Notes under the pieces: generated by a model
The model's input: the letters and a program-made list of their open reading frames with translations, nothing else
The model's database searches: none
What the model was told of the DNA's origin: nothing
From: Dhillonvirus LM40P1
DNA: 45,013 nucleotides
Sequence record: OZ035811.1
Strand: one strand, 5' to 3'
In this document: piece after piece, positions 9,482 through 40,345 of the stretch
Position numbering within the stretch: the first letter of the stretch is position 1
Layout: every line of letters starts with the position of its first letter
Translations under genes and position numbers: made by a program

Positions 9482-9904
9482 ATGAGCAATACTAAAATCC
9501 GGAAGGCGCTGAATAGCGTAGTGGAAGAGTTAGCCGCGGAATTGCAGACGGGTACGCGCATTATCCGCATCAACTGGGAGAATATTGCGGGCGACCACGC
9601 AGACGGCAACGGCATCTACCTAGAGCCGTACCTGCTACCGGCCCCGACCCAGTTTGTTGGCCTACAGCAGAAGGGCCGGATCTACGCGGGCGTGTATCAG
9701 GTTGCCGTAGTGTTCCCCGCGGACACGGGCACGCAGTATGCCAGTGAACTGGCGGACACCATTGCCGAGTCGCCAAAGTGGCAGAACGTGAAAATTGACG
9801 GCATGACGTTCCAGTTACAAGATGCACCGTACACCAGTCCGGTGACTGAAGATATTGACGCGGCGCGCATTGTAATCACGGTTATGTACCACGGTTGCGC
9901 CTGA
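9482..9904 (+). CDS. tail terminator-like protein candidate
   Basis: 140 aa ORF immediately upstream of major tail protein gene. Confidence 0.4.
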   Translation: MSNTKIRKALNSVVEELAAELQTGTRIIRINWENIAGDHADGNGIYLEPYLLPAPTQFVGLQQKGRIYAGVYQVAVVFPADTGTQYASELADTIAESPKWQNVKIDGMTFQLQDAPYTSPVTEDIDAARIVITVMYHGCA

Positions 9905-9965
9905 TTTGGCGCAATTCAGCGTGTGCGGTATCATTAATCGGAATAACTAAACAGGAGCATTCATT

Positions 9966-10691
9966 ATGGGTTATCAACTTCCTAACGGGTCCAGCGTCCA
10001 AATCGGGTCCGTACAGGGTGCAGGCATCGCAGTTACGGCAGCGTCGAACGCGGCGGCATCTATCAGCGACCTGACTCAAGGTTGCGTAATCACCTGCGCC
10101 GCTTCACATGGTCTGGCGGTTGGCGACGTGGTTATGTTCACGAAATCCCCGTGGGTCCGTGCGCTTAACCAGGCTTTCATCGTGGGTAAAGTAGACACCA
10201 ACGACGTGACGCTGGCGCGCTTCGACACGTCTGATACGACTAAGTATCCGAACGGTGCGTTCCAGGCAGGCACACCGGGTGAGGTCGTGAAGATTTCGAG
10301 CTTTATCGACTTCCCGTTTATCACCAACGTTGCCGTGTCCGGTGGCGACCAGCAGACGACGACCTTCCAGCCGTTGCAGGTGAATACCGCGATCAGTCTG
10401 AACACCACGAAAAACCCGTTGGTACAGACCTATACCTTCACCCACGACGAAGAAGACCCGATCCGTCCGATTCTGGAAGACCTGGACGACACGCAGAAGA
10501 CAACGGTAATTAAGTTCACTAACCCGGCAGCGTCCAGCGGTAAAGGTGAAATCCGTATCTATGCGGCTAAGGTGTCCTTCCAGAAGATTCCGTCTGCGGA
10601 AGTAAACAACGTCGAAACGGTACAATCCACTCTGACCATGCAGTCGGAAATGATGATTTACCGCAAAGACCTTGTTGAAGCCTTATCCTGA
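9966..10691 (+). CDS. major tail protein
   Basis: 241 aa ORF with CAGGAGC SD, followed by strong terminator and then chaperone/frameshift pair and tape measure. Confidence 0.6.
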   Translation: MGYQLPNGSSVQIGSVQGAGIAVTAASNAAASISDLTQGCVITCAASHGLAVGDVVMFTKSPWVRALNQAFIVGKVDTNDVTLARFDTSDTTKYPNGAFQAGTPGEVVKISSFIDFPFITNVAVSGGDQQTTTFQPLQVNTAISLNTTKNPLVQTYTFTHDEEDPIRPILEDLDDTQKTTVIKFTNPAASSGKGEIRIYAAKVSFQKIPSAEVNNVETVQSTLTMQSEMMIYRKDLVEALS

Positions 10692-10722
10692 TTTGGTCGG
10701 GTAAATGGCGAGTGTTAACATT

Positions 10723-10743
10723 GGGGGCGTAAGCCCCTTTTTT
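10723..10743 (+). terminator. rho-independent terminator
   Basis: GGGGC gtaa GCCCC hairpin followed by TTTTTT. Confidence 0.6.
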
Positions 10744-10758
10744 AATGGAGAGAATATC

Positions 10759-11121
10759 ATGGCTAAACAATCCCTTTTCACCCTCGACCCAAAACCGACT
10801 TTCAAGCTGCCGATTGAAATCCCGCGTCCGGGCGAGAAAGAGCCGGGTAAGCTGACTTTCACCGTCCGCCACCGTCCGATCGACGAGTTCTCGCAGACCA
10901 TGCAGGAGACTGAACGCAAGCTGTCAGAGTATGACCAGAATGACCCGGACGGCTTTAACGTTATGGTCGAGGCCATCATGCATGTGGCTGAAGGCTGGAA
11001 TCTGCCGGATGAGTTCACTGAAGAGAACGTACGCCGCCTGGTGGTGAACTATCCGCGTGCGTTCGGCGTGTTCCATACGTCGTACTATCTCGAATTGATG
11101 GGCTTGCGTGAAAAAAACTAA
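10759..11121 (+). CDS. tail assembly chaperone (lambda G-like)
   Basis: ATG at 10759 with GGAGAG SD; ends at slippery A AAA AAC followed by stop; position before tape measure. Confidence 0.6.
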   Translation: MAKQSLFTLDPKPTFKLPIEIPRPGEKEPGKLTFTVRHRPIDEFSQTMQETERKLSEYDQNDPDGFNVMVEAIMHVAEGWNLPDEFTEENVRRLVVNYPRAFGVFHTSYYLELMGLREKN

Positions 11122-11435
11122 TTGAGGCGGCGCGACGCTTCTATGGTCCGCCGCCACCGTCCGAAGACCTTGCCGCTAGTTTATGGGGTGCGGCCCCCGA
11201 AGATATTTGTCCGCCAGTTGCATTATGGCCTGATAACGTACAGGTCGTTGCCGTTTTCACTGACTGCTCAACGCAGTGGCGCACCGGTTTTAACGGCGCA
11301 TACGGCATCGACTACGGCGTGCTGGAATGGCTATTTAAAATGCACGGCATCGAAAATGAGAAGCGAGCTTTTAAAGATATCAAGTTAATGGAGCGTATTG
11401 CACTCGACGAAATTGCAGCACAACAGGCCGGGTAA
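10759..11435 (+). CDS. tail assembly chaperone frameshift fusion product (lambda GT-like)
   Basis: -1 frame continuation to TAA at 11433-11435 with protein-like composition; the same-frame ORF after the stop is Arg-rich junk. Confidence 0.5.
11112..11118 (+). other. programmed -1 ribosomal frameshift slippery heptamer A AAA AAC
   Basis: 0-frame codons GAA AAA AAC TAA; -1 frame is open from 11112 to 11435 and encodes a sensible protein. Confidence 0.55.
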
Positions 11436-11448
11436 TTCCGGCCTTTTT
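11426..11448 (+). terminator. rho-independent terminator
   Basis: GGCCGG...CCGGCC hairpin followed by TTTTT. Confidence 0.55.
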
Positions 11449-11452
11449 CATA

Positions 11453-11576
11453 GCGGGACGTCCTGCTTGTCCCGTTTTTGTCCCGCTGTCCCGCCCCGCC
11501 AAAAACTGCATACCTATTCAGAAATACTGCATAAAACCAAAACGGGACAAAAACGGGACAAGCAGGACGTCCCGCC
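11453..11576. repeat. inverted repeat pair (about 32 bp arms) built from TTGTCCCG/CGGGACAA iterons and GGGACGTCC
   Basis: 11453-11484 is the reverse complement of 11543-11576. Confidence 0.7.
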
Positions 11577-11599
11577 TCAAAAGTGCATATCTATGCAGT

Positions 11600-11772
11600 T
11601 TTCATGCATAAAACGAACGGGACAAAAACGGGACAAACTGCAAGCGGGACAGAGCGGGACGTCCCGCCGTCCCTGCCAGAGCTGCCGCGGGTTTCAGCCG
11701 ATCGGGACAGGCGGGACAAAGCCCAGTCTTTCAGACTAGACGGGGGTCAATGGCCCCCTCCGTCTGAGACTG
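11600..11772 (+). repeat. non-coding module copy 1: TGCATAAAAC, CGGGACAA iterons, GGGACGTCCCGCC palindrome, GCGGGTTT box, conserved hairpin
   Basis: About 170 bp with roughly 80 percent identity by eye to 39959-40131; iterons at 11 bp spacing. Confidence 0.7.
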
Positions 11773-11839
11773 AATAAGGTTGGTTGCAAAATGACTGATA
11801 CAATACAAACGGCAACTTGCATAAAAAGGGGACTGCATA

Positions 11840-14482
11840 ATGGCAGATCAAGCGGCAGGCATCACGCTAAAGGCGGATGTTGCACAAATCAGAACGGCGA
11901 ATACTGTGCTTGATTCATTCGCACAGAAATCCGAGAACACAGAAAACAAGGTTAAGAAATTAAACAACACCCTCGGCAACTCTAAAAAGGTGACGAGTGA
12001 TGCCGCTGGCGGAATGGAAAAGCTGGCGAACGAATCGCATCGAGCAGCCGATGGCATGACGAAACAGGAGCGACTCGCCAACCGGTTAGGCATGTCGACC
12101 AAAAACCTGGGCTTTGCCTCGCGTAACGCCGCATTCCAGTTACAGGATATAGCGGTTACGCTTGAGATGGGTATGCCGGTGCACCGCGTCATGCTTCAGC
12201 AGTTACCACAGCTTACGGGGGCGTTCGGTGGGTTTGGTAACACGCTGCGTTATGTTGCTGGCTTCCTCGGCCCAGTAGGGATCGGAATTGCAGCACTAAC
12301 GGCAACGTTAGGCGTAGGGGTGGCAATTACGTCACGTGCCGAAAACCAGGTAGCAGCGCTTAACAAGACGCTGGCGCTATCCGGTAACATTTCCGGCCTA
12401 ACTGCAAACCAGATCCTGGTGCTATCCGAGAACGCCGAGCGCATGGGCGGGTCGTTCCGCAAGACGCGTGACACAATCCAGGCGCTGGCGGCGGCGGGTG
12501 TGAAAGCGGGTGCAGACTTCGGCACGCTGGCGAAAGTGGTGAATGATTTTGCGAAGGCGTCCAGCCAGCCGATCGAGGATGTGGTCGCGGCGGTGGCGAA
12601 GCTGTCTACCGACCCGGTAGGTGGCTTGCGAGCATTGGCTGATAAGTATCACGTAGTAAACGAAGCGCAGATCCAGCAGGTGCAGTCACTAGTGACGGCT
12701 GGTCGCGAAACCGAAGCGGTGGCGCTGGCTAACAAAACAGCCGCAGCGTCGTTTACCACTATGACCAATGAGATCAAGTCCAACATGGGTACGCTTGAGC
12801 GGTCGATGAACGTCGTTACATCGGCAGCTAAATCTATGTGGGATGCCATCCTGGATGTTGGACGCGCGCAGTCCTCGAATGAGTCAGAGATGAAAGCGCG
12901 TGAATCATTGCAGCGACTGACCACGGCTTACTATGCCGAGATGAAAGCGGTAAACGCTGCCGGTGGGGTGATGACCGAAGCGCAGAAAGCGCGTATTAAC
13001 ATGCTTTACAGCGAACTGGTCGCCCAGGAGAAGGTGGTGGCGTCGCTCACCATGCGCAACCGTGCCGAGCGGGACAACGCCAGCGCCGCGGACGCAGCAG
13101 CAAAGGCGAACGAAGAGGCAAACCGCACCGCCCGCGACCGCGCTGCGTTTGAGAAGGAGTACGCAACCAACGCGAAGAGGCGCGCCGACGAGATCGCCCG
13201 CCTCAATTTGCTTAATAAGCGCGGCGTGATTGACGAGAAAGAGCTTGCCGAGGCGGTGAAGCAGGTAAACGAGCGTTACAAAGACCCCGCCCCGAAGAAG
13301 GCCGCCGCTGTTCGAGTCGATGCCGGGCTGAAAATGCTGGAAGTAGCACGGAGCGAACTGGCACAGCTTCGTGAGTCTGGAAAGCAGATCGAAGCCAACT
13401 CCTCGACGCAGACCCGAACGCAACGCGCGCAAGCGGCCCTGAACAAGCTGATCGCGGATAATGAGCAGTTAATCGCCGCAAGCAAAGAAAGAGCACTAAC
13501 GGCAGCCGAAAAGCAGCAGATGGTCGAATTCGGACGCGTGAAGGAAGTACGCGAGCAGATCGTCGAAGAAGCCAAATTGCTGGACGCGAAAGAGAAGCAG
13601 GTCAAGGCGCACGCGCAGATCGACGCCTTCGTTAAGAACCAGAACGCCGAGCTAAAAGCCACCGCGGCGGGCTATGCGCTTTCCACTCGCGAAGCGGCAA
13701 ACCTGCGTGAAGAATTGCAGCTAATTGACCGCCTGAAGCGGGTGGGCGCTAGTGATACCGATATTGATCTGGCGGTGTCTAAACTGCGCGAAGTGCAGGA
13801 AGCACAGACCGGTGCTAACGCCTCACTATGGGATGGGTTCAGCCGTGGGCTTAAGGATAGCGTGGATGAAATGGGTAACGGCTATACGCAGATGGTATCG
13901 GCAACGAAATTTACATTCGGCGCTATGATGAACACGATGAATGAATTTTTCGAGACTGGTAAATTCAACGCGAAGGAAATGATTAAATCCATCCTGAGCG
14001 AATTTATCAAGCTGGCTACCTCGCAGGCGTTCAAGTCCGTAATCAACGCATTCGGCGGTGACGGTGGGAAGAATGGTCTGTTCGGGGCAATCTTCTCCGG
14101 TCTGACGAAGAATGCCGACGGTGGAGCGTACGCTGGCGGCAACCTGTCCGCATATTCCGGTCAGATCGTAAGCCAGCCAACCTTTTTCAATTACGGCGTT
14201 AAGGCGTTCGCTAACGGCGCGGGATTGATGGGTGAGGCTGGGCCGGAGGCCATCATGCCGCTGAAGCGCGGGCCGGACGGTAAACTGGGCGTTGCCGCAA
14301 GTGGGGCTGGTGGTGGTATCGTCGTGACAACGAACGTGAACATGGGTACAGGGCAGGCTGACACCAGCGTTAAAGGGACCGACCCGCGAATGGGGCAGGT
14401 ATTCGGCAAGCAGATCACGGAAGCGGTTAAGGCCGAAATCGTGAAAGCGACTAAACCAGGTGGAGTACTTTACAAACGATGA
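11840..14482 (+). CDS. tail tape measure protein
   Basis: 880 aa, Ala-rich, extended coiled-coil-type central region, Gly-rich C-terminal part; position after chaperone pair. Confidence 0.8.
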   Translation: MADQAAGITLKADVAQIRTANTVLDSFAQKSENTENKVKKLNNTLGNSKKVTSDAAGGMEKLANESHRAADGMTKQERLANRLGMSTKNLGFASRNAAFQLQDIAVTLEMGMPVHRVMLQQLPQLTGAFGGFGNTLRYVAGFLGPVGIGIAALTATLGVGVAITSRAENQVAALNKTLALSGNISGLTANQILVLSENAERMGGSFRKTRDTIQALAAAGVKAGADFGTLAKVVNDFAKASSQPIEDVVAAVAKLSTDPVGGLRALADKYHVVNEAQIQQVQSLVTAGRETEAVALANKTAAASFTTMTNEIKSNMGTLERSMNVVTSAAKSMWDAILDVGRAQSSNESEMKARESLQRLTTAYYAEMKAVNAAGGVMTEAQKARINMLYSELVAQEKVVASLTMRNRAERDNASAADAAAKANEEANRTARDRAAFEKEYATNAKRRADEIARLNLLNKRGVIDEKELAEAVKQVNERYKDPAPKKAAAVRVDAGLKMLEVARSELAQLRESGKQIEANSSTQTRTQRAQAALNKLIADNEQLIAASKERALTAAEKQQMVEFGRVKEVREQIVEEAKLLDAKEKQVKAHAQIDAFVKNQNAELKATAAGYALSTREAANLREELQLIDRLKRVGASDTDIDLAVSKLREVQEAQTGANASLWDGFSRGLKDSVDEMGNGYTQMVSATKFTFGAMMNTMNEFFETGKFNAKEMIKSILSEFIKLATSQAFKSVINAFGGDGGKNGLFGAIFSGLTKNADGGAYAGGNLSAYSGQIVSQPTFFNYGVKAFANGAGLMGEAGPEAIMPLKRGPDGKLGVAASGAGGGIVVTTNVNMGTGQADTSVKGTDPRMGQVFGKQITEAVKAEIVKATKPGGVLYKR

Positions 14483-21917: not shown

Positions 21918-21946
21918 GGTATCATCTCCTTTGTTTTGACAACTTA

Positions 21947-21975
21947 AATATAGTGCAACCAATACGTGATTGCAA
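21947..21975 (-). promoter_or_regulatory. sigma70-like promoter (TTGCAA-17-TATATT) with ATTGGTTGCA repeats
   Basis: Minus strand reads ATTGGTTGCAATCACGTATTGGTTGCACTATATT, about 30 bp upstream of the lipoprotein start. Confidence 0.55.
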
Positions 21976-21998
21976 CCAATTTATGAGGAGTTTTCGCT

Positions 21999-25814: not shown

Positions 25815-26285
25815 TTATTTAAGTGCGCGAGTTACCAGTGTTTTTTCCATATTGCGGAAGTCTTCCTCGGTCATCTGGATTTTCGACCCGTCTTCACCGT
25901 ACAGCGTCACCAGCGGTTGAGCTTTCGCTAAAACTCCCTTCGGCAGCGACCACGCATCAACCTGTTTCTTCAGGCTTTCCAACTGCGCTGCCGTTACGTC
26001 GATCTGGATCTCGTCATGCACAGTTGTGTAAGACTCACCCAGTAGCGCGGAATATGCCACTAAATCCACAATGTTATCTTCCTGGTGTTTACGGGTCTGG
26101 CGTACCAGCTTCAGGCAAATCATAAATACCCAGGCTTCTTGCTCGGTAAGGTCACGACCGGTTAGTGCGTTGAATACGGCAGCGATCTGTTTAGCGCTGC
26201 GTTCTTCTTTGCTGTCATATCCATTTTCTTTCCCGCGCTGTTCCATAGTGGTGGCGGCGTTTTTGCAGTATTCGAATGCTTTCAT
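25815..26285 (-). CDS. hypothetical protein
   Basis: ATG at 26285 with AAGGAGAT SD; first gene downstream of promoter at 26331-26359. Confidence 0.5.
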   Translation of the reverse strand: MKAFEYCKNAATTMEQRGKENGYDSKEERSAKQIAAVFNALTGRDLTEQEAWVFMICLKLVRQTRKHQEDNIVDLVAYSALLGESYTTVHDEIQIDVTAAQLESLKKQVDAWSLPKGVLAKAQPLVTLYGEDGSKIQMTEEDFRNMEKTLVTRALK

Positions 26286-26330
26286 GGTTTATCTCCTTGA
26301 GGGGCGGCGGTATTGCCTCCCGATGTGGTT

Positions 26331-26359
26331 AATATAGTGCAACCAAATACGGATTGCAA
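26331..26359 (-). promoter_or_regulatory. sigma70-like promoter (TTGCAA-17-TATATT) with ATTGGTTGCA repeats
   Basis: Minus strand ATTGGTTGCAATCCGTATTTGGTTGCACTATATT. Confidence 0.55.
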
Positions 26360-26363
26360 CCAA

Positions 26364-26585
26364 TTATTTTAATTCCTCAATCAAATTGGCACGGACAATA
26401 CGGGCCGAGAAGGCATCGCACACAAGATGGCAACGCGCCGTCATGACAAGCCAGCCGGTTAGGTCACGGCCTAGCAATTGCTCCGGGCGGCTTACCCGCA
26501 ATACTTTATTTCCAGGGAAAACCTGGTAACGTTTAATGATCTCATCCACGACGCGCGGACTGCGATCGACGACTAAGATATTCAT
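26364..26585 (-). CDS. hypothetical protein
   Basis: ATG at 26585 with AAGGAG SD; 73 aa. Confidence 0.45.
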   Translation of the reverse strand: MNILVVDRSPRVVDEIIKRYQVFPGNKVLRVSRPEQLLGRDLTGWLVMTARCHLVCDAFSARIVRANLIEELK

Positions 26586-27051
26586 GTAGTTCTCCTTCGC
26601 TCATTATCTTGATTTGTGCGCTGCCGTTTGGTGGCGCTTCTTCAAAGATTATCAGTTGCTGACACTTGTTGTTGCTCGGTCCAACCTCGCCAGTGACGGC
26701 ATGGATAAACCGGATCCGCCAGTCCAGCAATATAATCAGGTTGGCGGTTTTCCGCGCCAGTTTGGCCCACTTCGTGGTCGTGTCCTGGTTAAGCAGCATT
26801 ACCGTTTTGCGACCCTGCGATGCGCAAGTCACCCACGGCAGCGGGTCGGAATACGGCGGATTGCACCACTTCCACCCGTTTAACTCTGACCAGTCCGCAT
26901 CAAGCGCGCTGTGCTCTTTCGTGAAGTAGCGCGGTAGCAAATGGTTGTGGTCACTCGCCGCCATGTCGTAACGGAATTTAAACGCCTTGCGCAGTGGTTT
27001 GAATAAGGCTGGCGGAGTGCGCCAGCTATCCTTCTGCTCATTCTCCGTCAT
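26542..27051 (-). CDS. DNA N6-adenine methyltransferase (phage Dam-type)
   Basis: NPPY motif in WCNPPYSDPLPW; ATG at 27051 chosen over the upstream in-frame extension. Confidence 0.6.
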   Translation of the reverse strand: MTENEQKDSWRTPPALFKPLRKAFKFRYDMAASDHNHLLPRYFTKEHSALDADWSELNGWKWCNPPYSDPLPWVTCASQGRKTVMLLNQDTTTKWAKLARKTANLIILLDWRIRFIHAVTGEVGPSNNKCQQLIIFEEAPPNGSAQIKIMSEGELHEYLSRRSQSARRG

Positions 27052-27502
27052 GCTGCGGATCCAGTGCGTAAAGTGGGATCTGTTTGGCGCTTTCCCACAG
27101 GCGTTTAATCCTTTCCTGCTCGCCTTTACCCATCGGGCGCATGTCCGTACTATAGTTGCCGTTGGTGGTGTCACGCCACGCGATCAGCACCAGGTCTTTA
27201 CGGTCGATCTTCGTTGTTCGGCCTTTCGGACGGACGTATTCTTCAGCACGTTTGCACTGCTCGCGTAGCCCTTCGGCGGTTATCCGGGTGAGCGATACGG
27301 ATGTTGTGTACCCGGTGCGCTGCATAATGGTGATCAGTTCGCCCAGCAGTTCGAAGCGTTCCTCTAATTCCAGCAATTGCTTGTTGGTATCCTGGAATTT
27401 TTTATACATATCTTCGGCGTGGCTACGTGCTTCTTCCGCCTTCTCGCGGGCTTCCAGACACTGTGAAGCCCAGTACGCTTTTTCTTCTTGTAAAATTTTC
27501 AT
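27038..27502 (-). CDS. hypothetical protein
   Basis: ATG at 27502 with GGAGAC SD, TAATG overlap with upstream gene; charged coiled-coil-type N-terminus. Confidence 0.5.
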   Translation of the reverse strand: MKILQEEKAYWASQCLEAREKAEEARSHAEDMYKKFQDTNKQLLELEERFELLGELITIMQRTGYTTSVSLTRITAEGLREQCKRAEEYVRPKGRTTKIDRKDLVLIAWRDTTNGNYSTDMRPMGKGEQERIKRLWESAKQIPLYALDPQHDGE

Positions 27503-27744
27503 TATTTAGTCTCCGTCATGCGAATCTCATTTTGTGGGATAAATTTGCCGTTCATCTCTACCCAGCAGGATCCGTACCGCCACTGGGTGTTACGACCGGT
27601 TTGCTCCGCATACACAGTCACGCATTCGTACTTCTCGAAGTAATACGTGCAGGAGGAAGGCATAATGATGCAAAAAACAACTAATAGCACCATCCACACC
27701 CATAACCGCAAAGCACCGTCGTAATCTAAAAAGAATCGTTTCAT
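27502..27744 (-). CDS. small membrane protein
   Basis: ATG at 27744 with GAGGA SD; hydrophobic helix LRLWVWMVLLVVFCIIM. Confidence 0.45.
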   Translation of the reverse strand: MKRFFLDYDGALRLWVWMVLLVVFCIIMPSSCTYYFEKYECVTVYAEQTGRNTQWRYGSCWVEMNGKFIPQNEIRMTETK

Positions 27745-27791
27745 CGTCAAATCCTCATATTAAAAAAGGGCGTTCCCTTCAGAACACCCCC

Positions 27792-27820
27792 AATATAATG
27801 CAACCAATCTCGCAATGCAA
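27792..27820 (-). promoter_or_regulatory. sigma70-like promoter (TTGCAT-17-TATATT) with ATTGGTTGCA repeats
   Basis: Minus strand ATTGGTTGCATTGCGAGATTGGTTGCATTATATT. Confidence 0.55.
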
Positions 27821-27825
27821 CCAAT

Positions 27826-28149
27826 TTATTCGAAGAAATTTGGGTCGCTCATCACATCCACTAGATAAAGGTTGTTAAGGCGGTTGCCGTAATGGCCTGG
27901 CGTGCGCTGACGGCACACAACAGCGTAACCAGGGGGGATGGTATTTCCGGTCGCCAGAATCCACGCCACGCGCGCGCCGTTTAGTGATTTACCGTTGTAT
28001 TCTATGCGGGTGCCGCCATCTGCAGTGTTAAGGCTGCCAATCTTCTGACCGGTAGAATTGAGACGGATAACACCAGTCTGGCTATCGTAATTAAACAGTT
28101 GTTTGGTCAGTGCTACCGAAAAATCAATTGGATCAAAGATAGTGTTCAT
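27826..28149 (-). CDS. HNH endonuclease-like protein (possibly degenerate)
   Basis: Segment ARVAWILATGNTIPPGYAVV...GHYGNRLNNL resembles the HRLxW...IPxG...DHxNGN...NL pattern of phage HNH proteins. Confidence 0.4.
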   Translation of the reverse strand: MNTIFDPIDFSVALTKQLFNYDSQTGVIRLNSTGQKIGSLNTADGGTRIEYNGKSLNGARVAWILATGNTIPPGYAVVCRQRTPGHYGNRLNNLYLVDVMSDPNFFE

Positions 28150-28862
28150 TTTAAATTTTCCTCATTGACTGCAATTGCGAAGCCGCGCGGTGTGAGCGAC
28201 CTGATTAATTTAGTGCGGGCGGACTTACCACCGAGCAGACTATACTGTTTGGAGTAACCTTTTTCAACAAATACCGGCTTCTTCTCCGGCATCCTGAAGC
28301 CGTTCCCCGTCCATAAGCAAGTCAGCTTCGGATATGAATCACGCGCGTTGATATATTCCGGGAATAGCGGGTGCACATCATCTTCCGGCAGGTAGCCGCC
28401 ATACTCCCACGGGTTAAACGAGTGATCTGGCTTGCGCCACTGGGTGGATAGCACACTGCGCGGATTCTCTATCATATATGGCACTTCGAAGAAGTCACCG
28501 AGAAAGGCCGCTATCTTAGCGGTGCGCACTGCCTTAATCTGGAATGCTGGGTCTTTAGCGCGTTTGCGCGGGAAAGCTGGCGCGCCGCTAACTGCCAGGT
28601 CGGTGCACGGCGGAAAGGCGTAAATAATATCAGGCGTGCCAAACTCACCCTCCATAGCGCGGTCAACGAAGTCCAGATCGATAAACACGTTCTTATAACG
28701 AATGCCGCGCCCGTAAAGCCGGTAGTGATTGTAGGAGCCGTGGTCGGCCCCGTCGAAGTTAAAACAGGTGCACTTATGCCCCATCTCGGCAGCACGCTCG
28801 ATCATAAGGCCGCTGCCGTCGAATAATGACCAGATGTTTAGTATCCTAACTCGCTTATTCAC
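28146..28862 (-). CDS. mini DNA cytosine-C5 methyltransferase-like protein
   Basis: Motif I SLFDGSG, motif IV FPPC (Pro-Cys), motif VI IENP in canonical order and spacing; GTG start overlapping helicase stop (GTGA); only 238 aa. Confidence 0.5.
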   Translation of the reverse strand: MNKRVRILNIWSLFDGSGLMIERAAEMGHKCTCFNFDGADHGSYNHYRLYGRGIRYKNVFIDLDFVDRAMEGEFGTPDIIYAFPPCTDLAVSGAPAFPRKRAKDPAFQIKAVRTAKIAAFLGDFFEVPYMIENPRSVLSTQWRKPDHSFNPWEYGGYLPEDDVHPLFPEYINARDSYPKLTCLWTGNGFRMPEKKPVFVEKGYSKQYSLLGGKSARTKLIRSLTPRGFAIAVNEENLK

Positions 28863-30319
28863 TTGCGGCCCCGCTTCTTCTCTTTCATGTAGTCCATCAG
28901 TTCATCCTGGATGTCGCGCTTACCATCACGGCGGCTTGCCACTAACTCGTCGAGCGTGCCGCGGGCCTGGATAATGTAGACGAATACCGGGCGCGGGTGT
29001 CCGGCCTGCATCTGGCGCACCGGTCCGATACGTTCGACGATCTGCGCGAAGTGCTCAAAGTTCCACGTATCCGAGAAGATAGCGAGGTGGTGTCCGCCGT
29101 CCTGTAAGTTAAGACCGTGGCCTGCCGATGCCGGGTGTGCAAACATGATCGGAATCTCGCCCCGGTTCCACGCTTCCATATCCTTAACGCCTTGCTTGCC
29201 CTTACCCATTGCGACACCCTGCGGGAATTTCTTCTTAAGGCGGGCTAGGTCGTGCTTGTACTGGTAGGCCACAAGCAGCGGTGCGCCGTTAAGTTCTTCT
29301 ACGATACTTTCCAGGGCGTCAAGTTTGGCGTCGTGGATTTTCTCCCACTCGTCGGTCCGCTCGCCGTCGTCGTCAACCTTATACACAGCGCCAGATGCAA
29401 GCTGGAGGCATTTAATCGTCTTAGCGGCAGCGTTGGCGGCCTCCACTGTTCCGCTTTCCAATTCGGCGAATAGCTCGCTTTCAAACTGGTCGTAGATCTT
29501 GCGGGCTTTCTTCGGTAGGTCTACCAGTACCGGCGTATAGATCGGCTTGTCGCAACCGAAGTATTCAGCCGCGTCAACGGTTAGCGAAATGTCAGCCAGC
29601 TTTGCGTGAATCTCTTTTTCGGAGTTTTTCAGCGGGGCGTGCTGCATAGTGAAGCTGCCAGGTGCAACCGGTTTACTGATAAACCAGCGGTCGGTGAATG
29701 CCTTATAGCTACTGCCGAGGCGTTCGCCACCGTCAACAAACCAGTTTTGCCCCCACACGTCCTTAAGCCCGTTTGGTGCTGGCGTGCCCGTCAGGTTAAT
29801 CCAGCGCTTGACGTGCTTATGTGCGATCGCCGCCAGGGCGCGTGCGCGTTTACTCCCCTGCGTGCTGCGATATCCTTTCAGCTTAGTTGATTCATCGGCA
29901 ACAACGACCGTAAAGGGCCATTCCTCTCCGCAATAGTTCACAAGCCACTCAACCACATCATAATTCACGCACACGACGTTAGCGCCGCTCTCAAGCGCTG
30001 TAATGCGGTCCTTCTCTGGTCCCGTGCCGTCCACCACCTGAAGCGATGAGAATCCCCATTTATCTTGTTCCGGGGGCCACGTACCGGACGCAACGCGCAA
30101 CGGGGCCAGCACCAGCACGCGGTCTTCTCCGTGGTTCAGTATGCCGGTCTGGAACATTTTGTTCAGCGCCCACATGGTAGCGCCAGTCTTTCCCGATCCC
30201 ATCGTCGCCCAGATATTACAGCGGGCGTGTTTAATGATGAAAGACGTGATTAACTTCTGGTACTCGCGCCTGCGAAAACGTGCCATCTTGTTACGCCTTT
30301 TTCCAGACTTCTGTTTCAT
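28859..30319 (-). CDS. SNF2-family ATP-dependent helicase
   Basis: DExx box VVADEST, motif III LTGTPAPNG, C-terminal helicase motif HGLNLQDGG; start at 30319 (GAGGAA SD), alternative 30286. Confidence 0.75.
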   Translation of the reverse strand: MKQKSGKRRNKMARFRRREYQKLITSFIIKHARCNIWATMGSGKTGATMWALNKMFQTGILNHGEDRVLVLAPLRVASGTWPPEQDKWGFSSLQVVDGTGPEKDRITALESGANVVCVNYDVVEWLVNYCGEEWPFTVVVADESTKLKGYRSTQGSKRARALAAIAHKHVKRWINLTGTPAPNGLKDVWGQNWFVDGGERLGSSYKAFTDRWFISKPVAPGSFTMQHAPLKNSEKEIHAKLADISLTVDAAEYFGCDKPIYTPVLVDLPKKARKIYDQFESELFAELESGTVEAANAAAKTIKCLQLASGAVYKVDDDGERTDEWEKIHDAKLDALESIVEELNGAPLLVAYQYKHDLARLKKKFPQGVAMGKGKQGVKDMEAWNRGEIPIMFAHPASAGHGLNLQDGGHHLAIFSDTWNFEHFAQIVERIGPVRQMQAGHPRPVFVYIIQARGTLDELVASRRDGKRDIQDELMDYMKEKKRGRK

Positions 30320-30512
30320 GGTGCCAATTCCTCGTCGTAGCGGTCCAGTTAAATTCGTGCCCCACATGCACGCCGGTCGCCCGGAAGCCTTTAAACTTCT
30401 GCCAGCACACAGTTAACGGCAGCGGCTCGCGCATTGCGGCGATATACCATACGCGATCGCCGGGTTTGCAGTCGCCCAGTGTGGTAAGGCGGTAATGTTC
30501 TTTCATCGTCAT
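30291..30512 (-). CDS. hypothetical small protein (KPGDRVW motif)
   Basis: ATG at 30512 with GGAGAC SD; 73 aa. Confidence 0.45.
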   Translation of the reverse strand: MTMKEHYRLTTLGDCKPGDRVWYIAAMREPLPLTVCWQKFKGFRATGVHVGHEFNWTATTRNWHHETEVWKKA

Positions 30513-30548
30513 GTCTCCAAAAAAGGCGGGACTAGCCCGCCATGTTGA

Positions 30549-30752: not shown

Positions 30753-30781
30753 ACTATAACTTTATGCGACCAATTCCGCAA
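30753..30781 (-). promoter_or_regulatory. sigma70-like promoter variant (TTGCGG-17-TATAGT) with ATTGGTTGC/ATTGGTCGC repeats
   Basis: Minus strand ATTGGTTGCGGAATTGGTCGCATAAAGTTATAGT. Confidence 0.4.
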
Positions 30782-31040
30782 CCAATAAATCAGCGTCGTG
30801 AATGTTGTCGATTACGCGAACGTCGGCCCCGCGCTTCGCCATGCGCTCATGTTCACGTACCTGGTGCGGCTTCGGCTTACCACCGGGGCGCTTCACTTCA
30901 ACGAATACGACTCTGCCGTTGATGATGATAATCAGGTCGGGCGCGCCGGTACGCCCTTCCCATGCCATTTTACGGCAGAATCCACCTGCCTCTTTTACCT
31001 CTTTCATCAGGTGACTTTGCACCTTGCCTTCAGGAGTCAT
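30762..31040 (-). CDS. VRR-NUC domain nuclease
   Basis: Segment VFVEVKRPGGKPKPHQVREHERMAKRGADV matches the VRR-NUC E.K...Q pattern; TAATG coupling to polymerase gene. Confidence 0.65.
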   Translation of the reverse strand: MTPEGKVQSHLMKEVKEAGGFCRKMAWEGRTGAPDLIIIINGRVVFVEVKRPGGKPKPHQVREHERMAKRGADVRVIDNIHDADLLVAELVA

Positions 31041-33328
31041 TATTTTCTGTACCTGTACATTATGTCGCCTTCAGCGGCGAGCGGGAAGCCCTTAGCCCAC
31101 ACCGGCAGATCGCACATTAACCGGCATAACTCTTCGGTCGTGTAATCGTCCGTGTCCGGCACTTCGGTGATTAATTCATCGTGCACCGACAGGACGATTT
31201 CGTATCCCGCCGCTTCGACGCCAGGCATTGCCCATGCGAGAATATCGCGGCACAGCGCCTGCACGATGTTCTCCGTCAGTTTGCCGCCGTAGGTGTACTG
31301 GAAGCCCCACTGGCGCGTCGTCTGATTCTCGCCCTGATATTTAATGCGGGTGCTGGTTTTCTTCTTGCCAGTATCCTCATCGATTTCAGTCGTGACAGAC
31401 AGCGCAATCCCCGGATAGCTCATGATACGACCGGACGGCAACTCCACTTTCAACCACCAGCCTGGCGCGTCCGGGTCGTCCCGCTCATCGTCAAACGTAG
31501 GGTCGTGCTTCGCCTTCGTGCGCATGATTTTAAGCGCCTGTTTGCCGTCTGGACGCACGTTAGCACCGGCCCAGTATGATTTGCCCGGATTGCGGATTGC
31601 GCACAGCACAGCGTCTTCCAGTTCGGCCCAGAATCTAACCGTTTCCGGGTGGGACTCACGCCACATACGCTTGATCGCATCGCAGGTAAGCCACACGTTC
31701 TTCGGCAGGATGTAAGTCGGTCGCTCGTCTTTCTTGCCAGGCTTCGGCGGACGCTTCGCTTCATTAATCCTCGCGTACTCGTACCCGCGTTTCGCTGCGG
31801 CCCATATGTGATCCGGGAACGTGCCTTTCATCACGTCTGCCATCGCATACAGGTCAAGACCAAGGTTTTTGGCAAACTGCAAGAACGCCGCAACGCCACC
31901 ACCATAGCCGAGGCCCAATTCACAGGCCTTACCGATCTGGCGGAGGTCTTTGCGGTTGGCCTTGATATAATCCGGGTCGAGGCCGAACATCTTACCGGCA
32001 GTTTCGCAATAAATATCGCGTCCCGCCTTAAAGACCATCAACGCAGTTTTCTCGCCCGCAATCCAGGCAAGGCCGCGTCCTTCCACGTTGGAGTAGTCCG
32101 CTACAACAAACTTCTTACCCTTAGCCGGGATAATGCAGCCGCGTACGGTCGATGCTGTCAGCTTAGATATGTCGTACGCCCAGTGTGCGGTCCCGCGTAA
32201 TAGGGAATTGATGCCGTTGGTTAGCATGTGCGACCGGACCCAAAACGACACGTCGCTTTCACCATCACGGCGCTTGATCTTGCCTTCGTGGTCGTCGCTG
32301 TACTCGCCACGCGCCAGGTTTTGAGGCTGAAAACCTTTACCGGCCCAGCGCAATGTTCGTTTAGCACCACCATACTGAAGACAACCACGGCGGCGACCGT
32401 CAGACGACAGACCGTTAACGAGCGGATTGTATTTGGTCGACGCCGTTGATGACGCACCGAGGCGCATTTCAATCAGAACTTTGCCCTCGTCCGGGAAGTC
32501 CGGGTCTTCCAGCAAATCATTCAGTGTGGATTTCTGCGCGTTATGGATAGTGAAAGCTGGCGCAATATCTCGTAACAACGGCAGGAAATCATTTCCGGTC
32601 AGCTTACCGCCAAACTTCTCCATCGCTTCTTCTTTCAGTTCTTCCTTGTGCGCTTCAACGGCCTTGATGGCGGCGTAGGCCAGTTCGGTGTCCACGTTGA
32701 AGCCGCGGTCGTTGATCAACTGGTCAATTGCCAGTATCTGGTCTTCCTTCGGAGTATTACCCCAATCCGGGATACGCCAGTATACTTCACGCATCGCGAT
32801 AATATCGAAGCGTGCATACTTGAGGAATTTGGCCCACTCTTCCGGGTGAGTCTCGCGAGTGTAGCGACGGACTTTGTAAGTCTTCGGCGTTGGCTTACAG
32901 AATCGCTTAATCAGCGCCTTGCCCGCTTTATCTTTCGCATGTTCAGCGTCAACGCCCAATACCTGGCATTGCATGTCAAGGCTGCCGGGGAGGGCGTGGC
33001 GGAAGGCCATAATCATGGTGTCTTCGATCTGGCAAACCGGCAGGTCAATACCCCACTTCTCACGGATAACCAGGCGGTCAAACAGGAGGCCGTTAGCCAT
33101 TACGATTTTTGCTTTCTTGCGGACTACCGCACGCAATGCCTTACGCAGTTCACTCGGCATCTTCGGCGATTCAGTAGCGTCCCACGTCTGAACACGGCCT
33201 TCATCAATGGCGTAGGTGCAGATCATGATTTCCGTGGTTGGGTGTTCTGCATACGCGTATGCGCCGACCTTCTTCAGATCAACGCCGCTAAACGTTTCGG
33301 TATCGAGGAATAGTCGTTCGAAGTTCAT
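31040..33328 (-). CDS. DNA polymerase I (family A) with 3'-5' exonuclease domain
   Basis: Exo motif LFLDTETFSG; pol motif A DYSNVEGR, motif B RQIGKACELGLGYGGG, motif C VHDELI; start at Met 42 of listed ORF (ATGA overlap). Confidence 0.85.
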   Translation of the reverse strand: MNFERLFLDTETFSGVDLKKVGAYAYAEHPTTEIMICTYAIDEGRVQTWDATESPKMPSELRKALRAVVRKKAKIVMANGLLFDRLVIREKWGIDLPVCQIEDTMIMAFRHALPGSLDMQCQVLGVDAEHAKDKAGKALIKRFCKPTPKTYKVRRYTRETHPEEWAKFLKYARFDIIAMREVYWRIPDWGNTPKEDQILAIDQLINDRGFNVDTELAYAAIKAVEAHKEELKEEAMEKFGGKLTGNDFLPLLRDIAPAFTIHNAQKSTLNDLLEDPDFPDEGKVLIEMRLGASSTASTKYNPLVNGLSSDGRRRGCLQYGGAKRTLRWAGKGFQPQNLARGEYSDDHEGKIKRRDGESDVSFWVRSHMLTNGINSLLRGTAHWAYDISKLTASTVRGCIIPAKGKKFVVADYSNVEGRGLAWIAGEKTALMVFKAGRDIYCETAGKMFGLDPDYIKANRKDLRQIGKACELGLGYGGGVAAFLQFAKNLGLDLYAMADVMKGTFPDHIWAAAKRGYEYARINEAKRPPKPGKKDERPTYILPKNVWLTCDAIKRMWRESHPETVRFWAELEDAVLCAIRNPGKSYWAGANVRPDGKQALKIMRTKAKHDPTFDDERDDPDAPGWWLKVELPSGRIMSYPGIALSVTTEIDEDTGKKKTSTRIKYQGENQTTRQWGFQYTYGGKLTENIVQALCRDILAWAMPGVEAAGYEIVLSVHDELITEVPDTDDYTTEELCRLMCDLPVWAKGFPLAAEGDIMYRYRK

Positions 33329-33495
33329 TGTTTCACCCTTACCACGGCCTCGGCGTCCCCTTTCAGAGAGTAGATGCCGTCGGTTATTGTGATTATGTCG
33401 TCGTTCTGTTTCACTTCGGCAACCGTGAAGTATTCGCCCAGGAATTTGGACCACACGCGCATTCCCGGTTTCACATCTTTAGCTTTAATTCTCAT
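33325..33495 (-). CDS. small protein (56 aa, KPGMRVW motif), unlisted short ORF
   Basis: ATG at 33495 with AGGACA SD; stop overlaps polymerase ATG; shares KPGxRVW with the 30291-30512 product. Confidence 0.4.
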   Translation of the reverse strand: MRIKAKDVKPGMRVWSKFLGEYFTVAEVKQNDDIITITDGIYSLKGDAEAVVRVKQ

Positions 33496-37568: not shown

Positions 37569-39833
37569 ATGAGAAATATAGAATTTGCGATCACACCCCC
37601 CGCTAAGAAAGGCGAATCTGCGGTAGCTCATAACCAGTCCATGACTACCGCCGAGTTTTTCGAATTTATCCAGGATGCACCGGTAGTGTCGTCAGTTTGC
37701 ATTAACGGTACTGAAGATAAAAAAGAATATGCGCGACGTAAGCGTAAAGGCGACGGCATTGTGGCTACAACCGCCGATGGCACGCGTAAAAAGACTGGCG
37801 TGGTTAGCCGCTCGATCCTGTTCTTCGACCTGGACCGTGCTGACAACCGCACACTTACCCGCTGCCGCAGGGCTTTCCGCAAGTCCGGCCTGGAATATGT
37901 CTACCACACCACCACCGGCGACCGCCACCCGTTGAAAGACGGCAAGCGCTGTGTGCGTTTCCTGGTGCTGACAAACAAGCCAGTTCCGGCGGAAGACCTG
38001 GGCCGCGCGCAGGCTGCACTGCTTGAGCAACTGGGTCTTACCGACGCGGGCTTTGATGACTGCTCGAAAGACACAAACCGCCTTATGTACCTGCCCCACC
38101 AGCAGGCTAAGGTCGAGTGCCATGAAGGTAAACGCGCTAACGTGCGTCGTCTGCTTCGCCTGGCTGACAAGATGGGTATTGAGCAGGAAACGTTTCGCCG
38201 TGAACTGGTGCAGGGCGACGACGAGCAGATGAACGGCATCCTCGACTGGTGTTTCCAGGCTGGTTTTGAGCCGTTACCATCCGGGCGCGGTTATGAAGTA
38301 CCGTGCCCAAACGAACATCTGCACTCTGGTGAAGGGTCTACCGCTATCATGCTTAAGGATGGCGAGATTCGTTTCAAATGTATGCACACCGGCAACGGAT
38401 GCTGTTCTGAACTGAACAAACACCAACACCTGGCGCTGCGAATGATTGGTATCCCGGATATTTATAACGTGGAGCCACACAACATGTCACGCAAACAGAT
38501 CTCGGCAATCCTGCCGGGTCTGGACGACGAAGAAGTGGACGCGCAGTACGAGCACATGGTTGACCTGGTGGGTGAAGGTGAGGATTATGCGTCCTGTACT
38601 GACGCAGACCTGGAAGACGAACCGACGGCGTTGTTCTCGAAGCACGACCCGATCATCGAAGGTCTGATTAACTTCAAATCGACCTGGTACGCAGCGGGTG
38701 AGTCGAACATTGGTAAGTCCTTCTTTGTCATGGGTCAGATGGCTGCCGTTGCCGCTGGCATCCCGTTCGGCGGCGCGAAGGTCGTCCAGTCCCATTGCTT
38801 CTACTTCGATGCGGAAGGTGGCGAGGCGTCACTGCAACGTAAAGAAGCGTTGCAGATTAAATATGAGCACGACCTGGACAAGCTGCACATTATCGACCTT
38901 CAGGCACGCGGCTGGGATATTACGAGCAAGTCCGGCCTGCGTGAAGTCATCAGCTTTATCAACCGCACCGCGGATGGTGAGCCGGTCGGCCTGGTGGCGT
39001 TCGACTCCCTTAACCAGACCGTAGCGCTGCGTTCGGCTGACGCCAAACCGTTCGATGAGAACAACGCCAGCGATATGGGTGAGATTGTCAAGGCGCTGAA
39101 AGCCATTGCGGAAAACACAGGCGGCAGTGCGGGCGTCATCCACCACCCGGCGAAGGGTGCAAACGGCAGCAGATCCCCGCGTGGGTCCGGTGCGCTACAT
39201 GGCGCGGTGGATTCTGCATTCTTCCTGGAACAGCCAGACGAGAATCAGCCAGGCCAGCTTAACCTCTATCATGAGAAAGCCCGTAACGGCGTGAAACAGG
39301 GTCCGCGCGGCTTCGTGCTACTGAAGTGCAAAGTGTCCATTAACGAGCGCAAGTCCGACACGTTCGAAGCGCACCAGTCCACTAACCCTGGTCCAGACTT
39401 CGGCGATGTAGTTGCCGGTTGGGACGTCAAGCCAATCCAGGCCACCCCGCGTGATGAGACTCTGTACCTTGTACCGGTAGCTCTGGCCCCGTTCGCTATC
39501 GAACAGGCGAAGGCCGCGGGCAAGCAGGCTGTTAAGGAAGAAAACCCCGCCGGTCCGCGCAATGAAAAAGAGAAAGTGCTTTACGCAGCGCTCGAAGCGT
39601 TGATGGAAGAGAATCCGGGACACCATGGCTTCAGCAAATCGGCAATCGTCCGCAAAGCCGGACTGGCGAAAGGTGGCACATCGACGAAGCCAATAGACGA
39701 TATGCGTGAGCGCGGAATCATCGGCTTTTACAAAGACCCGGACACCGGGGCCATTTACGGGTCGTCGAATCTGGTTATCAATTCACAAATACCTATGCAA
39801 TTGACGGCGACGGATGATGATTTGAAAGATTAA
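37569..39833 (+). CDS. primase-helicase (N-terminal primase-like domain, zinc motif, RecA-type ATPase)
   Basis: Walker A GESNIGKS, Walker B-like VGLVAFDSL, Cys/His cluster CPNEHLH...CMHTGNGC. Confidence 0.65.
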   Translation: MRNIEFAITPPAKKGESAVAHNQSMTTAEFFEFIQDAPVVSSVCINGTEDKKEYARRKRKGDGIVATTADGTRKKTGVVSRSILFFDLDRADNRTLTRCRRAFRKSGLEYVYHTTTGDRHPLKDGKRCVRFLVLTNKPVPAEDLGRAQAALLEQLGLTDAGFDDCSKDTNRLMYLPHQQAKVECHEGKRANVRRLLRLADKMGIEQETFRRELVQGDDEQMNGILDWCFQAGFEPLPSGRGYEVPCPNEHLHSGEGSTAIMLKDGEIRFKCMHTGNGCCSELNKHQHLALRMIGIPDIYNVEPHNMSRKQISAILPGLDDEEVDAQYEHMVDLVGEGEDYASCTDADLEDEPTALFSKHDPIIEGLINFKSTWYAAGESNIGKSFFVMGQMAAVAAGIPFGGAKVVQSHCFYFDAEGGEASLQRKEALQIKYEHDLDKLHIIDLQARGWDITSKSGLREVISFINRTADGEPVGLVAFDSLNQTVALRSADAKPFDENNASDMGEIVKALKAIAENTGGSAGVIHHPAKGANGSRSPRGSGALHGAVDSAFFLEQPDENQPGQLNLYHEKARNGVKQGPRGFVLLKCKVSINERKSDTFEAHQSTNPGPDFGDVVAGWDVKPIQATPRDETLYLVPVALAPFAIEQAKAAGKQAVKEENPAGPRNEKEKVLYAALEALMEENPGHHGFSKSAIVRKAGLAKGGTSTKPIDDMRERGIIGFYKDPDTGAIYGSSNLVINSQIPMQLTATDDDLKD

Positions 39834-39842
39834 ATTTTGCGC

Positions 39843-39921
39843 GCATTGGTTGCCAATATGGTTAATTTGTGCGCGCATTGGTTGCCAGATTGGGTATTAA
39901 ATCTATATCGCATTGGTTGCC
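39843..39921 (+). repeat. three direct repeats of GCATTGGTTGCC at 32-35 bp spacing
   Basis: Copies at 39843-39854, 39875-39886, 39910-39921, each followed by an A/T-rich hexamer. Confidence 0.75.
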
Positions 39922-39958
39922 GTGTAGTGCTAAATAAGTGAATAGTTATGCAAAATAA

Positions 39959-40131
39959 GTGCATAAAACAAACGGGACAAAAACGGGACAAACGACAAAC
40001 GGGACAAAACGGGACGTCCCGCCGTCCCCCTCAGGAGTGGCGCGGGTTTGAGGCAAACGGGACAAGCGGGACAGACCACAGTCTTTCAGACTAGACGGGG
40101 GGTATTGTCCCCCCTCCGTCTGAGACTGCAT
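39959..40131 (+). repeat. non-coding module copy 2: TGCATAAAAC, CGGGACAA iterons, GGGACGTCCCGCC palindrome, GCGGGTTT box, conserved hairpin
   Basis: Matches 11600-11772 in element order; hairpin stem conserved while loop differs (tattgt versus tcaatgg). Confidence 0.7.
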
Positions 40132-40288
40132 AAAATCTCTGGTTGCATAATCAACGGCAGCATAGTGAAAAATGCGGCGGGGGTAGATCTCGGCAACCAA
40201 TGCGGGTTGAAGAGTGGAGAGTGAAAAATGCAGTTTGGTAATGACAACTGATAGCGATCAGCATTTTCATGCGCGTGATTAATATTGG

Positions 40289-40317
40289 TTGCATTCGTCC
40301 TGCCAGGGTGTTAGATT
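40289..40317 (+). promoter_or_regulatory. sigma70-like promoter (TTGCAT-17-TAGATT) flanked by ATTGGTTGCA motifs
   Basis: ATTGGTTGCATtcgtcctgccagggtgTTAGATTGGTTGCAC about 30 bp upstream of the 40346 gene. Confidence 0.5.
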
Positions 40318-40345
40318 GGTTGCACACCAACATGAGGACTGAACG

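Follow-up and report, generated by a model that had tools for sequence, protein, structure and literature searches.

The window analyzed here (45,013 bp; record OZ035811.1) is essentially the complete genome of an Escherichia coli phage of the genus Dhillonvirus, because the best megablast match of positions 26,300–30,500 among GenBank phages (163 records returned) is Dhillonvirus LM40P1 (genome of 45,041 bp), with 98.9% identity over 100% of the query. The 163 records are nearly all Escherichia or Shigella phages of this genus, and ∼100 of them span at least 80% of the region. Within it, the open reading frame (ORF) list places six consecutive genes on the minus strand at the coordinates given by the original prediction. 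Their products had been described as an SNF2-family helicase, a protein resembling C5-cytosine methyltransferases, an HNH-like protein, a membrane protein, a 154-residue protein, and a Dam-type methylase, and Pfam and PHROG searches matched these kinds. Comparison with related phages showed that the gene order is kept throughout the genus; it is common to ∼155 Dhillonvirus genomes and was also checked in phages Pubbukkers, Bas15, and SECphi18. The genes are already annotated in curated relatives, including the BASEL phage Bas15 (PaulFeyerabend), where they are labeled DNA helicase, Dcm-like C5 cytosine methyltransferase, putative homing/HNH endonuclease, hypothetical proteins, and Dam-like N6-adenine methyltransferase.

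Followed in the direction of transcription, the cluster starts past a terminator-like hairpin (GGCGGGCTAGTCCCGCC followed by TTTTTT; 30525–30541, minus strand) that ends the upstream unit. The first gene beyond it is an ORF of 73 residues (phrog_9291; 30291–30512, minus strand; ratio of nonsynonymous to synonymous substitution rates (dN/dS) of ∼0.12–0.16), whose stop codon lies 5 nt before the ATG of the SNF2-family ATPase/translocase (475 residues; 28859–30286, minus strand). This ATG at 30286, and not position 30319, is most likely the helicase start. It falls just past the stop of the 73-residue ORF, and the protein that it yields begins with MARFRRREYQK and can be aligned from its first residue onward with the homologues of five other phage groups. 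The genes for a small Dcm-like C5-cytosine DNA methyltransferase (238 residues; 28146–28862, minus strand) and for the HNH-like protein (107 residues; 27826–28149, minus strand) come next. Both are joined by overlaps, the helicase stop to the GTG start of the Dcm-like gene (GTGA) and the Dcm-like stop to the ATG start of the HNH-like gene (ATGA).

An intergenic control region follows (27766–27824, minus strand). Here, a promoter-like element (27824–27790), TTGGTTGCA-N8-TTGGTTGCA-TTATATT, provides a −35 box (TTGCAT), a 17-nt spacer, and a −10 box (TATATT), and it overlaps a GC-rich hairpin with a T-run (27791–27766). The same terminator/promoter architecture is found in phage Pubbukkers at ∼80% DNA identity. 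Beyond this region lie the genes for a single-pass membrane protein (80 residues; phrog_18961; 27502–27744, minus strand), an orphan protein of 154 residues (phrog_10530; 27038–27502, minus strand), a Dam-type N6-adenine DNA methyltransferase (169 residues; 26542–27051, minus strand), and, as the last gene of the same operon and outside the original six, a Ksap1 orthologue (73 residues; 26364–26585, minus strand). The most likely starts are ATG 27744 for the membrane protein and ATG 27051 for Dam; in the long ORF, the Pfam match to Dam does not start until residue 41, and the Dam genes of relatives are annotated as 486 nt. These genes overlap as well (membrane protein stop and 154-residue protein start, TAATG; 154-residue protein and Dam, 14 nt; Dam and Ksap1, 44 nt). 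Because the predicted hairpin and the σ70-like promoter separate the HNH-like gene from the membrane protein gene, the sequence points to two transcription units, 73-residue ORF/SNF2/Dcm/HNH-like and membrane protein/154-residue protein/Dam/Ksap1, and the single leftward unit of the original prediction is not borne out.

The TTGGTTGCA element recurs between genes elsewhere in the window. The arrangement TTGGTTGCA-N8-TTGGTTGCA-(C/T)TATATT lies at 27790–27824, 26330–26363, and 21945–21979 (all minus strand), with further occurrences at 5819–5841 (minus strand) and 40285–40324 (plus strand). The element sits past stop codons and is kept in Pubbukkers, and 31 copies with at most one mismatch compare with 13 ± 3.8 in shuffled sequences. 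It reads as a putative σ70-like promoter, the embedded direct repeat of which could be an operator. A literature search for the motif gave no relevant result.

The SNF2 protein is well-supported by PF00176 (36.2 bits, gathering cut-off 24.9) and phrog_62 (E value 2e-154), and its sequence matches in the PDB are yeast Snf2 and INO80. The motifs GSGKTG, ADEST, LTGTP, and AGHGLNLQ are present and invariant in an alignment of six genera, whereas the Pfam Helicase_C match stays below its cut-off (16.7 versus 23.5 bits). The gene has a dN/dS of 0.05. Homologues were found by tblastn in 1,676 phage records, whose hosts include Salmonella, Staphylococcus, Streptococcus, Bacteroides, Caulobacter, and Paenibacillus.

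To describe the neighborhood of this gene, we scanned six-frame ORFs at 80 IMG/VR loci, which carry homologues of 44–92% identity, with purpose-built hidden Markov models (HMMs). A VRR-NUC gene accompanies the SNF2 homologue at 75 of the 80 loci and at every one of the 64 with at least 3 kb of upstream sequence; PolA is found nearby at 58 of these 64. A methylase of any kind searched for (Dcm-like, canonical C5, or Dam) is near the SNF2 homologue at only 8 of the 80 loci, a count that is a lower bound. In the LM40P1 window, both partners are located just upstream of the SNF2 gene: a VRR-NUC nuclease (92 residues; 30762–31040, minus strand; PF08774, 25.7 bits, cut-off 23.8) and a family A DNA polymerase (ORF 31040–33454, minus strand), which is labeled DNA polymerase I in relatives and whose true start is probably internal, near MNFERLF.

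The same association extends to distant phages. In a Staphylococcus Triavirus and a Paenibacillus phage, the SNF2 homologue (35–38% identity) directly follows VRR-NUC and adjoins a VirE-type primase, and in Caulobacter phage KcrB, it (49% identity) follows an unannotated, unscored ORF at the same position and adjoins a DNA polymerase. No methylase was found near the SNF2 homologue in any of these three. Together with those of Jerseyvirus and Eiauvirus, these siphovirus modules contain SNF2 proteins that are 35–71% identical across groups, and they share with the window an upstream VRR-NUC on the same strand (in KcrB, the unannotated ORF) and a polymerase or VirE-type primase close by. Dhillonvirus differs from them in that a pair of small ORFs separates VRR-NUC from SNF2 and that methylase genes are appended downstream. 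A literature search for SNF2 with VRR-NUC in phages gave no relevant result.

Because VRR-NUC and PolA are constant neighbors and methylases are not, the SNF2 ATPase belongs to a replication/recombination core with these two proteins. It would work with them, probably in remodeling or processing branched replication and recombination intermediates. Some relatives carry inteins in these genes, namely in the DNA polymerase of Pubbukkers (9675–12863) and in the SNF2 helicase of several Jerseyviruses; the polymerase and helicase of the window are intein-free. A paper on helicases as triggers of retron Eco11 was set aside because it concerns UvsW, D10, and Heli22 and not the SNF2 protein.

The 238-residue protein encoded next to the helicase, which had been called C5-methyltransferase-like, is by its motifs and predicted fold a credible Dcm-like enzyme. 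It matches phrog_757 ("DNA methyltransferase," E value 2e-80) but gives no match to the Pfam family DNA_methylase (PF00145) even at an E value of 10. Among its homologues, a few that are 63–65% identical have a precomputed PF00145 match, and the Jerseyvirus homologue reaches 16.7 bits against a cut-off of 22. Motif I (Phe-14, Gly-16, Ser-17, and Gly-18 of FDGSG), motif IV (Pro-84, Pro-85, and Cys-86), and motif VI (Glu-132, Asn-133, and Pro-134 of ENP) are invariant in an alignment of 30 homologues. The AlphaFold (AF2) model has a predicted local distance difference test score (pLDDT) of 90.9, and the top 40 or more PDB matches of this model in Foldseek are the catalytic domains of DNMT3A and DNMT3B (E values down to 5e-7). 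A sequence match in the PDB to the kinase ToxD (E value 0.49) was discarded as a chance match. The family is present in 1,514 phage records.

Over its full length, the window enzyme is 54% identical to the Dcm protein of phage Bas06 (KarlJaspers, bas06_0055; E value 1e-86). The alignment has a constant offset of four residues, and therefore Cys-86, Glu-132, and Lys-179 correspond to Cys-82, Glu-128, and Lys-175 of the enzyme from phage K42. The 711-bp dcm gene of K42, which is 95.4% identical to that of KarlJaspers/Bas06, triggers retron Ec86 (preprint; restated in a later paper). According to the same preprint, K42 Dcm introduces 5-methylcytosine into the retron msDNA, Ec86 defense depends on a CCTGG motif, Dcm alone suffices for methylation in E. 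coli, and the proposed catalytic residues are Cys-82, Glu-128, Lys-175, and Lys-176. K42 escapers with dcm deleted remain viable. The Bas06/K42 and window enzymes are alike in size (236 versus 238 residues), in the positions of the catalytic Cys, Glu, and Lys, and in a DNMT3-like predicted fold. They differ in that Bas06 and K42 belong to another phage family (Drexlerviridae) and in that the gene has different neighbors in Bas06, a phage without an SNF2 homologue. A "putative helicase" near the Bas06 dcm gene was rejected as an SNF2 homologue because it has no similarity, and the ORF adjoining dcm in Bas06 was likewise rejected as a homologue of the HNH-like gene. By analogy to these enzymes, CCWGG is the likely specificity of the window enzyme.

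Within the genus, the Dhillonvirus Escherichia phage Opt212 (NC_073055.1) retains only residues 173–238 of the Dcm-like gene, beside the helicase. Because Opt212 keeps only this C-terminal third, the dcm gene is dispensable. Its natural loss could reflect escape from Dcm-sensing defenses such as retron Ec86.

The assignment of the last of the six genes to a Dam-type N6-adenine methylase is confirmed by PF05869 (128.5 bits, cut-off 28.1) and an NPPY motif (in WCNPPYSD). PADLOC classifies the protein as an orphan methyltransferase. Outside the genus, it is 38% identical to its counterpart in Eiauvirus, 37% to those of lambdoid/Stx phages, and ∼29% to those of T1-like phages (Bas06 Dam, 29%). With the phage Dam family (PF05869/TIGR01712; T1, lambdoid, and Stx phages), it shares the strong Pfam match, the NPPY motif, and the orphan state without a cognate nuclease. 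Its TIGR01712 score of 86.6 bits, however, does not reach the equivalog cut-off (97.05 bits), and it is only 29–37% identical to T1-like and lambdoid representatives. The GATC specificity of this family is based on the Dam enzymes of T1 and VT-2. Because of the subthreshold TIGR01712 score, we regard the window Dam as a family member and not as a certified equivalog, for which GATC is the likely specificity as judged from the family.

The gene that follows Dam (26364–26585) is, by its sequence and position, the orthologue of Ksap1. The encoded protein is 58% identical (E value 5e-30) to the product of a 74-residue SECphi18 gene that occupies the same position, between Dam and a phosphatase gene. 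Ksap1 (KpAvs2-stimulating protein 1) is bound by the Klebsiella protein Avs2 (KpAvs2) to sense Dhillonvirus infection (PMC11564622).

We also analyzed the frequency of restriction sites across the whole window. Palindromes of six bases are strongly underrepresented: 28 of the 64 have observed/expected ratios <0.4, nine have no site at all, and CTAG has a ratio of 0.29. HindIII, PvuII, SmaI, XhoI, SphI, ApaI, and EcoKI have no site, EcoRI has one, and EcoRV and PstI have three each. This is the classic signature of restriction avoidance. In contrast, GATC (155 sites, observed/expected 0.76), the NGATCN hexamers (0.59–0.98), and CCWGG (156 sites, 1.03) are not avoided. We rejected the idea that CCWGG is an outlier, as it is merely not depleted and is not unusual among 5-bp palindromes; for this reason, site frequencies are a supportive argument only. 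The sparing of GATC and CCWGG fits protection by methylation but is no proof of it, as the Dam and Dcm enzymes of the host would leave the same pattern.

Taken together, we assign a probability of roughly 75% to the reading that the region constitutes the downstream part of the DNA-metabolism arm of Dhillonvirus and that its two transcription units hold gene sets of separate function, with a replication SNF2 protein and two orphan methylases. In the first unit, the Dcm-like enzyme, which would be translationally coupled to the helicase, probably methylates cytosine at C5, next to the 73-residue ORF and the HNH-like gene. The second unit would be expressed from its own σ70-like promoter and supply the accessory membrane protein, the 154-residue orphan, the Dam-type methylase, and Ksap1. 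The two orphan methylases could mark replicating phage DNA regardless of the Dam/Dcm status of the host. Marked progeny would be protected against restriction enzymes specific for unmethylated GATC or CCWGG, and other sites in the genome would escape type II enzymes by the avoidance of 6-bp palindromes. Such marking probably comes at a cost, because defense systems sense these products: retron Ec86 would sense Dcm activity and, separately, KpAvs2 would sense Ksap1. Genome marking by both methylases is a plausible and reasonable role, because the 54% identical Dcm homologue has a documented methylation and defense-related phenotype as the trigger of Ec86. Of the suggested anti-defense or genome-marking module, the marking by methylases is thus retained, whereas an integrated helicase–methylase module is not.

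Several points weigh against this reading. Both GATC and CCWGG are methylated by E. coli K-12 hosts themselves, so that a selective benefit of additional marking is hypothetical. Both specificities are extrapolations, over 54% identity for Dcm and over 29–37% identity for Dam. The dN/dS values, which point to purifying selection on all genes of the region, are indicative only, as dS is saturated (>1) for several genes. The methylase count around SNF2 homologues comes from HMMs of three families only. In three related genera of enterobacterial siphoviruses, the SNF2 gene adjoins a C5 methylase gene, and this may reflect some functional link. Lys-176 of K42 Dcm, a DNA-contact residue, is Leu in the window enzyme. 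Finally, in the BASEL study, Dhillonvirus phages were sensitive to the restriction–modification systems tested, and the methylase genes of Drexlerviridae had no simple link to restriction resistance.

These BASEL results also speak for an alternative in which the methylases act in DNA transactions of the phage itself and not in anti-restriction, for instance in the timing of replication or packaging, in promoter control, or in evading host mismatch repair or methylation-dependent processes. The dcm and dam genes are nearly universal in Dhillonvirus and under strong purifying selection, which is in line with such a role. So is the background that laboratory hosts are already Dam+ and Dcm+ and that phage P1 needs its Dam for pac cleavage. 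However, some Dhillonviruses have lost most of dcm, as seen in Opt212, the dcm-deleted escapers of K42 are viable, and GATC and CCWGG are spared amid strong type II selection at other palindromes. We therefore consider this explanation unlikely, if not negligibly so.

A different question is what the remaining proteins contribute under the reading of a replication SNF2 with two orphan methylases. The HNH-like protein, whose catalytic residues had been called uncertain, is truncated and degenerate with respect to the HNH_3/I-HmuI type. It is related to HNH homing endonucleases, as indicated by phrog_99 ("HNH endonuclease," E value 1e-13), and phage HNH homing endonucleases were among the matches of a fold search; a sequence match in the PDB to OspA (E value 0.05) was dismissed as a chance match. 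It has the pattern RVAW...G..P.G..V...NR..NL in common with I-HmuI and other HNH_3 enzymes and may resemble them in an N-terminal β-rich fold. The Pfam family HNH_3 (PF13392) reaches only 12 bits (cut-off 24.8; E value 0.17) and aligns only in profile positions 5–21 of 46, the non-catalytic first half. When the sequences were aligned by hand with VV...NR..NL as the anchor, Cys-79, Arg-80, and Gln-81 fell at the place of the canonical D-H pair, so that the canonical catalytic His is absent. The Eiauvirus homologue also lacks a His at this position, and the only conserved His, His-86, is at a non-canonical one. In contrast to the homing endonucleases (160–250 residues), the protein has only 107 residues, lacks the C-terminal DNA-binding tail (AP2/NUMOD), stays at a fixed locus, and is under purifying selection. 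It was found only in Dhillonvirus (157 records, fixed position) and in Eiauvirus (40% identity), where the gene order is helicase, HNH-like, canonical PF00145 methylase, and Dam. With a dN/dS of 0.06–0.09 against three relatives, the protein is maintained and is neither decaying nor mobile. It would represent the remnant of a homing endonuclease that has been domesticated and is probably no longer catalytic.

Because the catalytic His and the tail are lost, yet purifying selection is strong and the gene is translationally coupled to the Dcm-like gene, we considered a role as a non-nuclease partner of cytosine methylation or promoter control. The retention of the protein beside a non-homologous canonical C5 methylase in Eiauvirus was a further reason. 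The protein could confer specificity or act in recruitment, could read methylated DNA, or could be the regulator that binds the TTGGTTGCA repeats, which start 2 nt past the HNH-like stop codon. Likewise, the 154-residue orphan, whose gene overlaps the Dam start at its end, could be an anti-defense or Dam-associated factor. These roles are speculative, and we give the proposal a rather low probability.

The original prediction had suggested that the pairing of helicase and methylase echoes defense systems such as DISARM; on this view, the SNF2, methylase, and HNH-like genes would form one integrated anti-defense or DISARM-like module, in which the helicase acts with the methylases. The superficial likeness is that DISARM (DrmD SNF2 helicase with the methylase DrmMI or DrmMII) also encodes an SNF2-type ATPase and DNA methylases close together. 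In the window, the overlaps of the SNF2 and Dcm genes and of the Dcm and HNH-like genes, the adjoining C5 methylase in Dhillonvirus, Jerseyvirus, and Eiauvirus, and weak matches of the SNF2 protein to DrmD, DpdE, and ZorD profiles speak for such a module. However, DrmD reaches 24.9 bits against a cut-off of 950, and the PADLOC matches (DrmD, 24.8 bits; DpdE, 35 bits), none of which exceeds 35 bits, represent generic SNF2 similarity. Equivalents of DrmA, DrmB, DrmC, and DrmE are absent from the locus, and for the core genes drmA, drmB, and drmC (DUF1998, PLD), no neighboring ORF gave a PADLOC, Pfam, or NCBIfam match. The position of the methylase flips between genera, and its family is swapped in Eiauvirus. 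The models of the three methylase families found none near 72 of the 80 SNF2 relatives, whereas VRR-NUC is constant. Moreover, K42 Dcm needs no partner for methylation in E. coli, and Dam is in a separate transcription unit. Unlike DISARM, the genes of the window are phage-borne, are spread over two operons, and surround a helicase whose partners are the replication genes for VRR-NUC and PolA. The resemblance to DISARM thus does not hold, and a module of this kind is very improbable. The SNF2 homologues proved to be replication-associated, yet the genes are syntenic in relatives, and the Dcm homologue has both a methylation and a defense phenotype.

That the HNH-like gene still acts as a selfish homing endonuclease, which would make the cluster partly a mosaic of mobile elements and not a functional unit, is hardly tenable despite its phrog_99 and fold matches and its HNH/homing endonuclease label in relatives, given its fixed place in 157 Dhillonvirus records and in Eiauvirus, its low dN/dS, the HNH_3 match confined to the non-catalytic half, and the loss of both the catalytic D-H position and the C-terminal DNA-binding domain.

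The cluster is thus ordinary and already known, and it is not a new helicase–methylase anti-defense system. The proper place of the SNF2 gene is in the PolA/VRR-NUC replication set and not among defense-like helicase–methylase systems. The family of the "mini" C5 methylase is very common in phages, and one of its members is a proven trigger of retron Ec86. With Ksap1, the proven trigger of KpAvs2, this short stretch encodes two products that, themselves or as close homologues, are characterized as triggers of host immunity, and it is therefore useful for predicting which defenses stop a phage in therapy or biocontrol. The value of the analysis lies in correct bookkeeping and not in discovery; residual interest attaches to the methylase specificities and to the roles of the HNH-like and 154-residue proteins.

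The small proteins of the second unit are less conserved than the enzymes. The membrane protein, an 82-residue ORF of which 80 residues follow ATG 27744, contains one strongly hydrophobic helix (Kyte–Doolittle value of 2.38 over residues 10–28). Its gene is accessory: it was found in 78 records, about half of Dhillonvirus, versus ∼157 for its neighbors, and it is absent from Bas15 and SECphi18. The 154-residue protein, which has a helical, charged N terminus, is restricted to Dhillonvirus and diverged (∼60–68% amino acid identity), with only 18 relatives among 1.8 billion representative proteins and no functional lead. Its PHROG label "DNA ligase" was rejected, as it lacks Pfam, NCBIfam, and PADLOC support, the matches are weak coiled-coil ones, and one depositor states "no evidence." The 154-residue, membrane, and Ksap1 proteins show 59–82% amino acid identity between Dhillonviruses (mostly 59–68%) versus 85–92% for the surrounding enzymes, with dN/dS values of 0.10–0.18 despite this divergence. 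Mosaic exchange or fast evolution at the phage–host interface may account for it.

Downstream of Ksap1, a gene with DUF6378 (25815–26285, minus strand) has only 28% protein identity to the gene in the same slot of Pubbukkers, Bas15, and SECphi18, which is labeled phosphatase or nucleotidase there. The slot is thus conserved, but the allele in it seems to have been replaced.

Elsewhere in the window, a non-coding region of ∼500 bp (39836–40330, plus strand) lies downstream of a 754-residue ORF (37569–39833). Within it, three copies of CGCATTGGTTGCC follow one another at intervals of 32–35 bp, and AACGGGACAA-type iterons are clustered at 39970–40075. The region is a candidate for a replication origin or regulatory hub.

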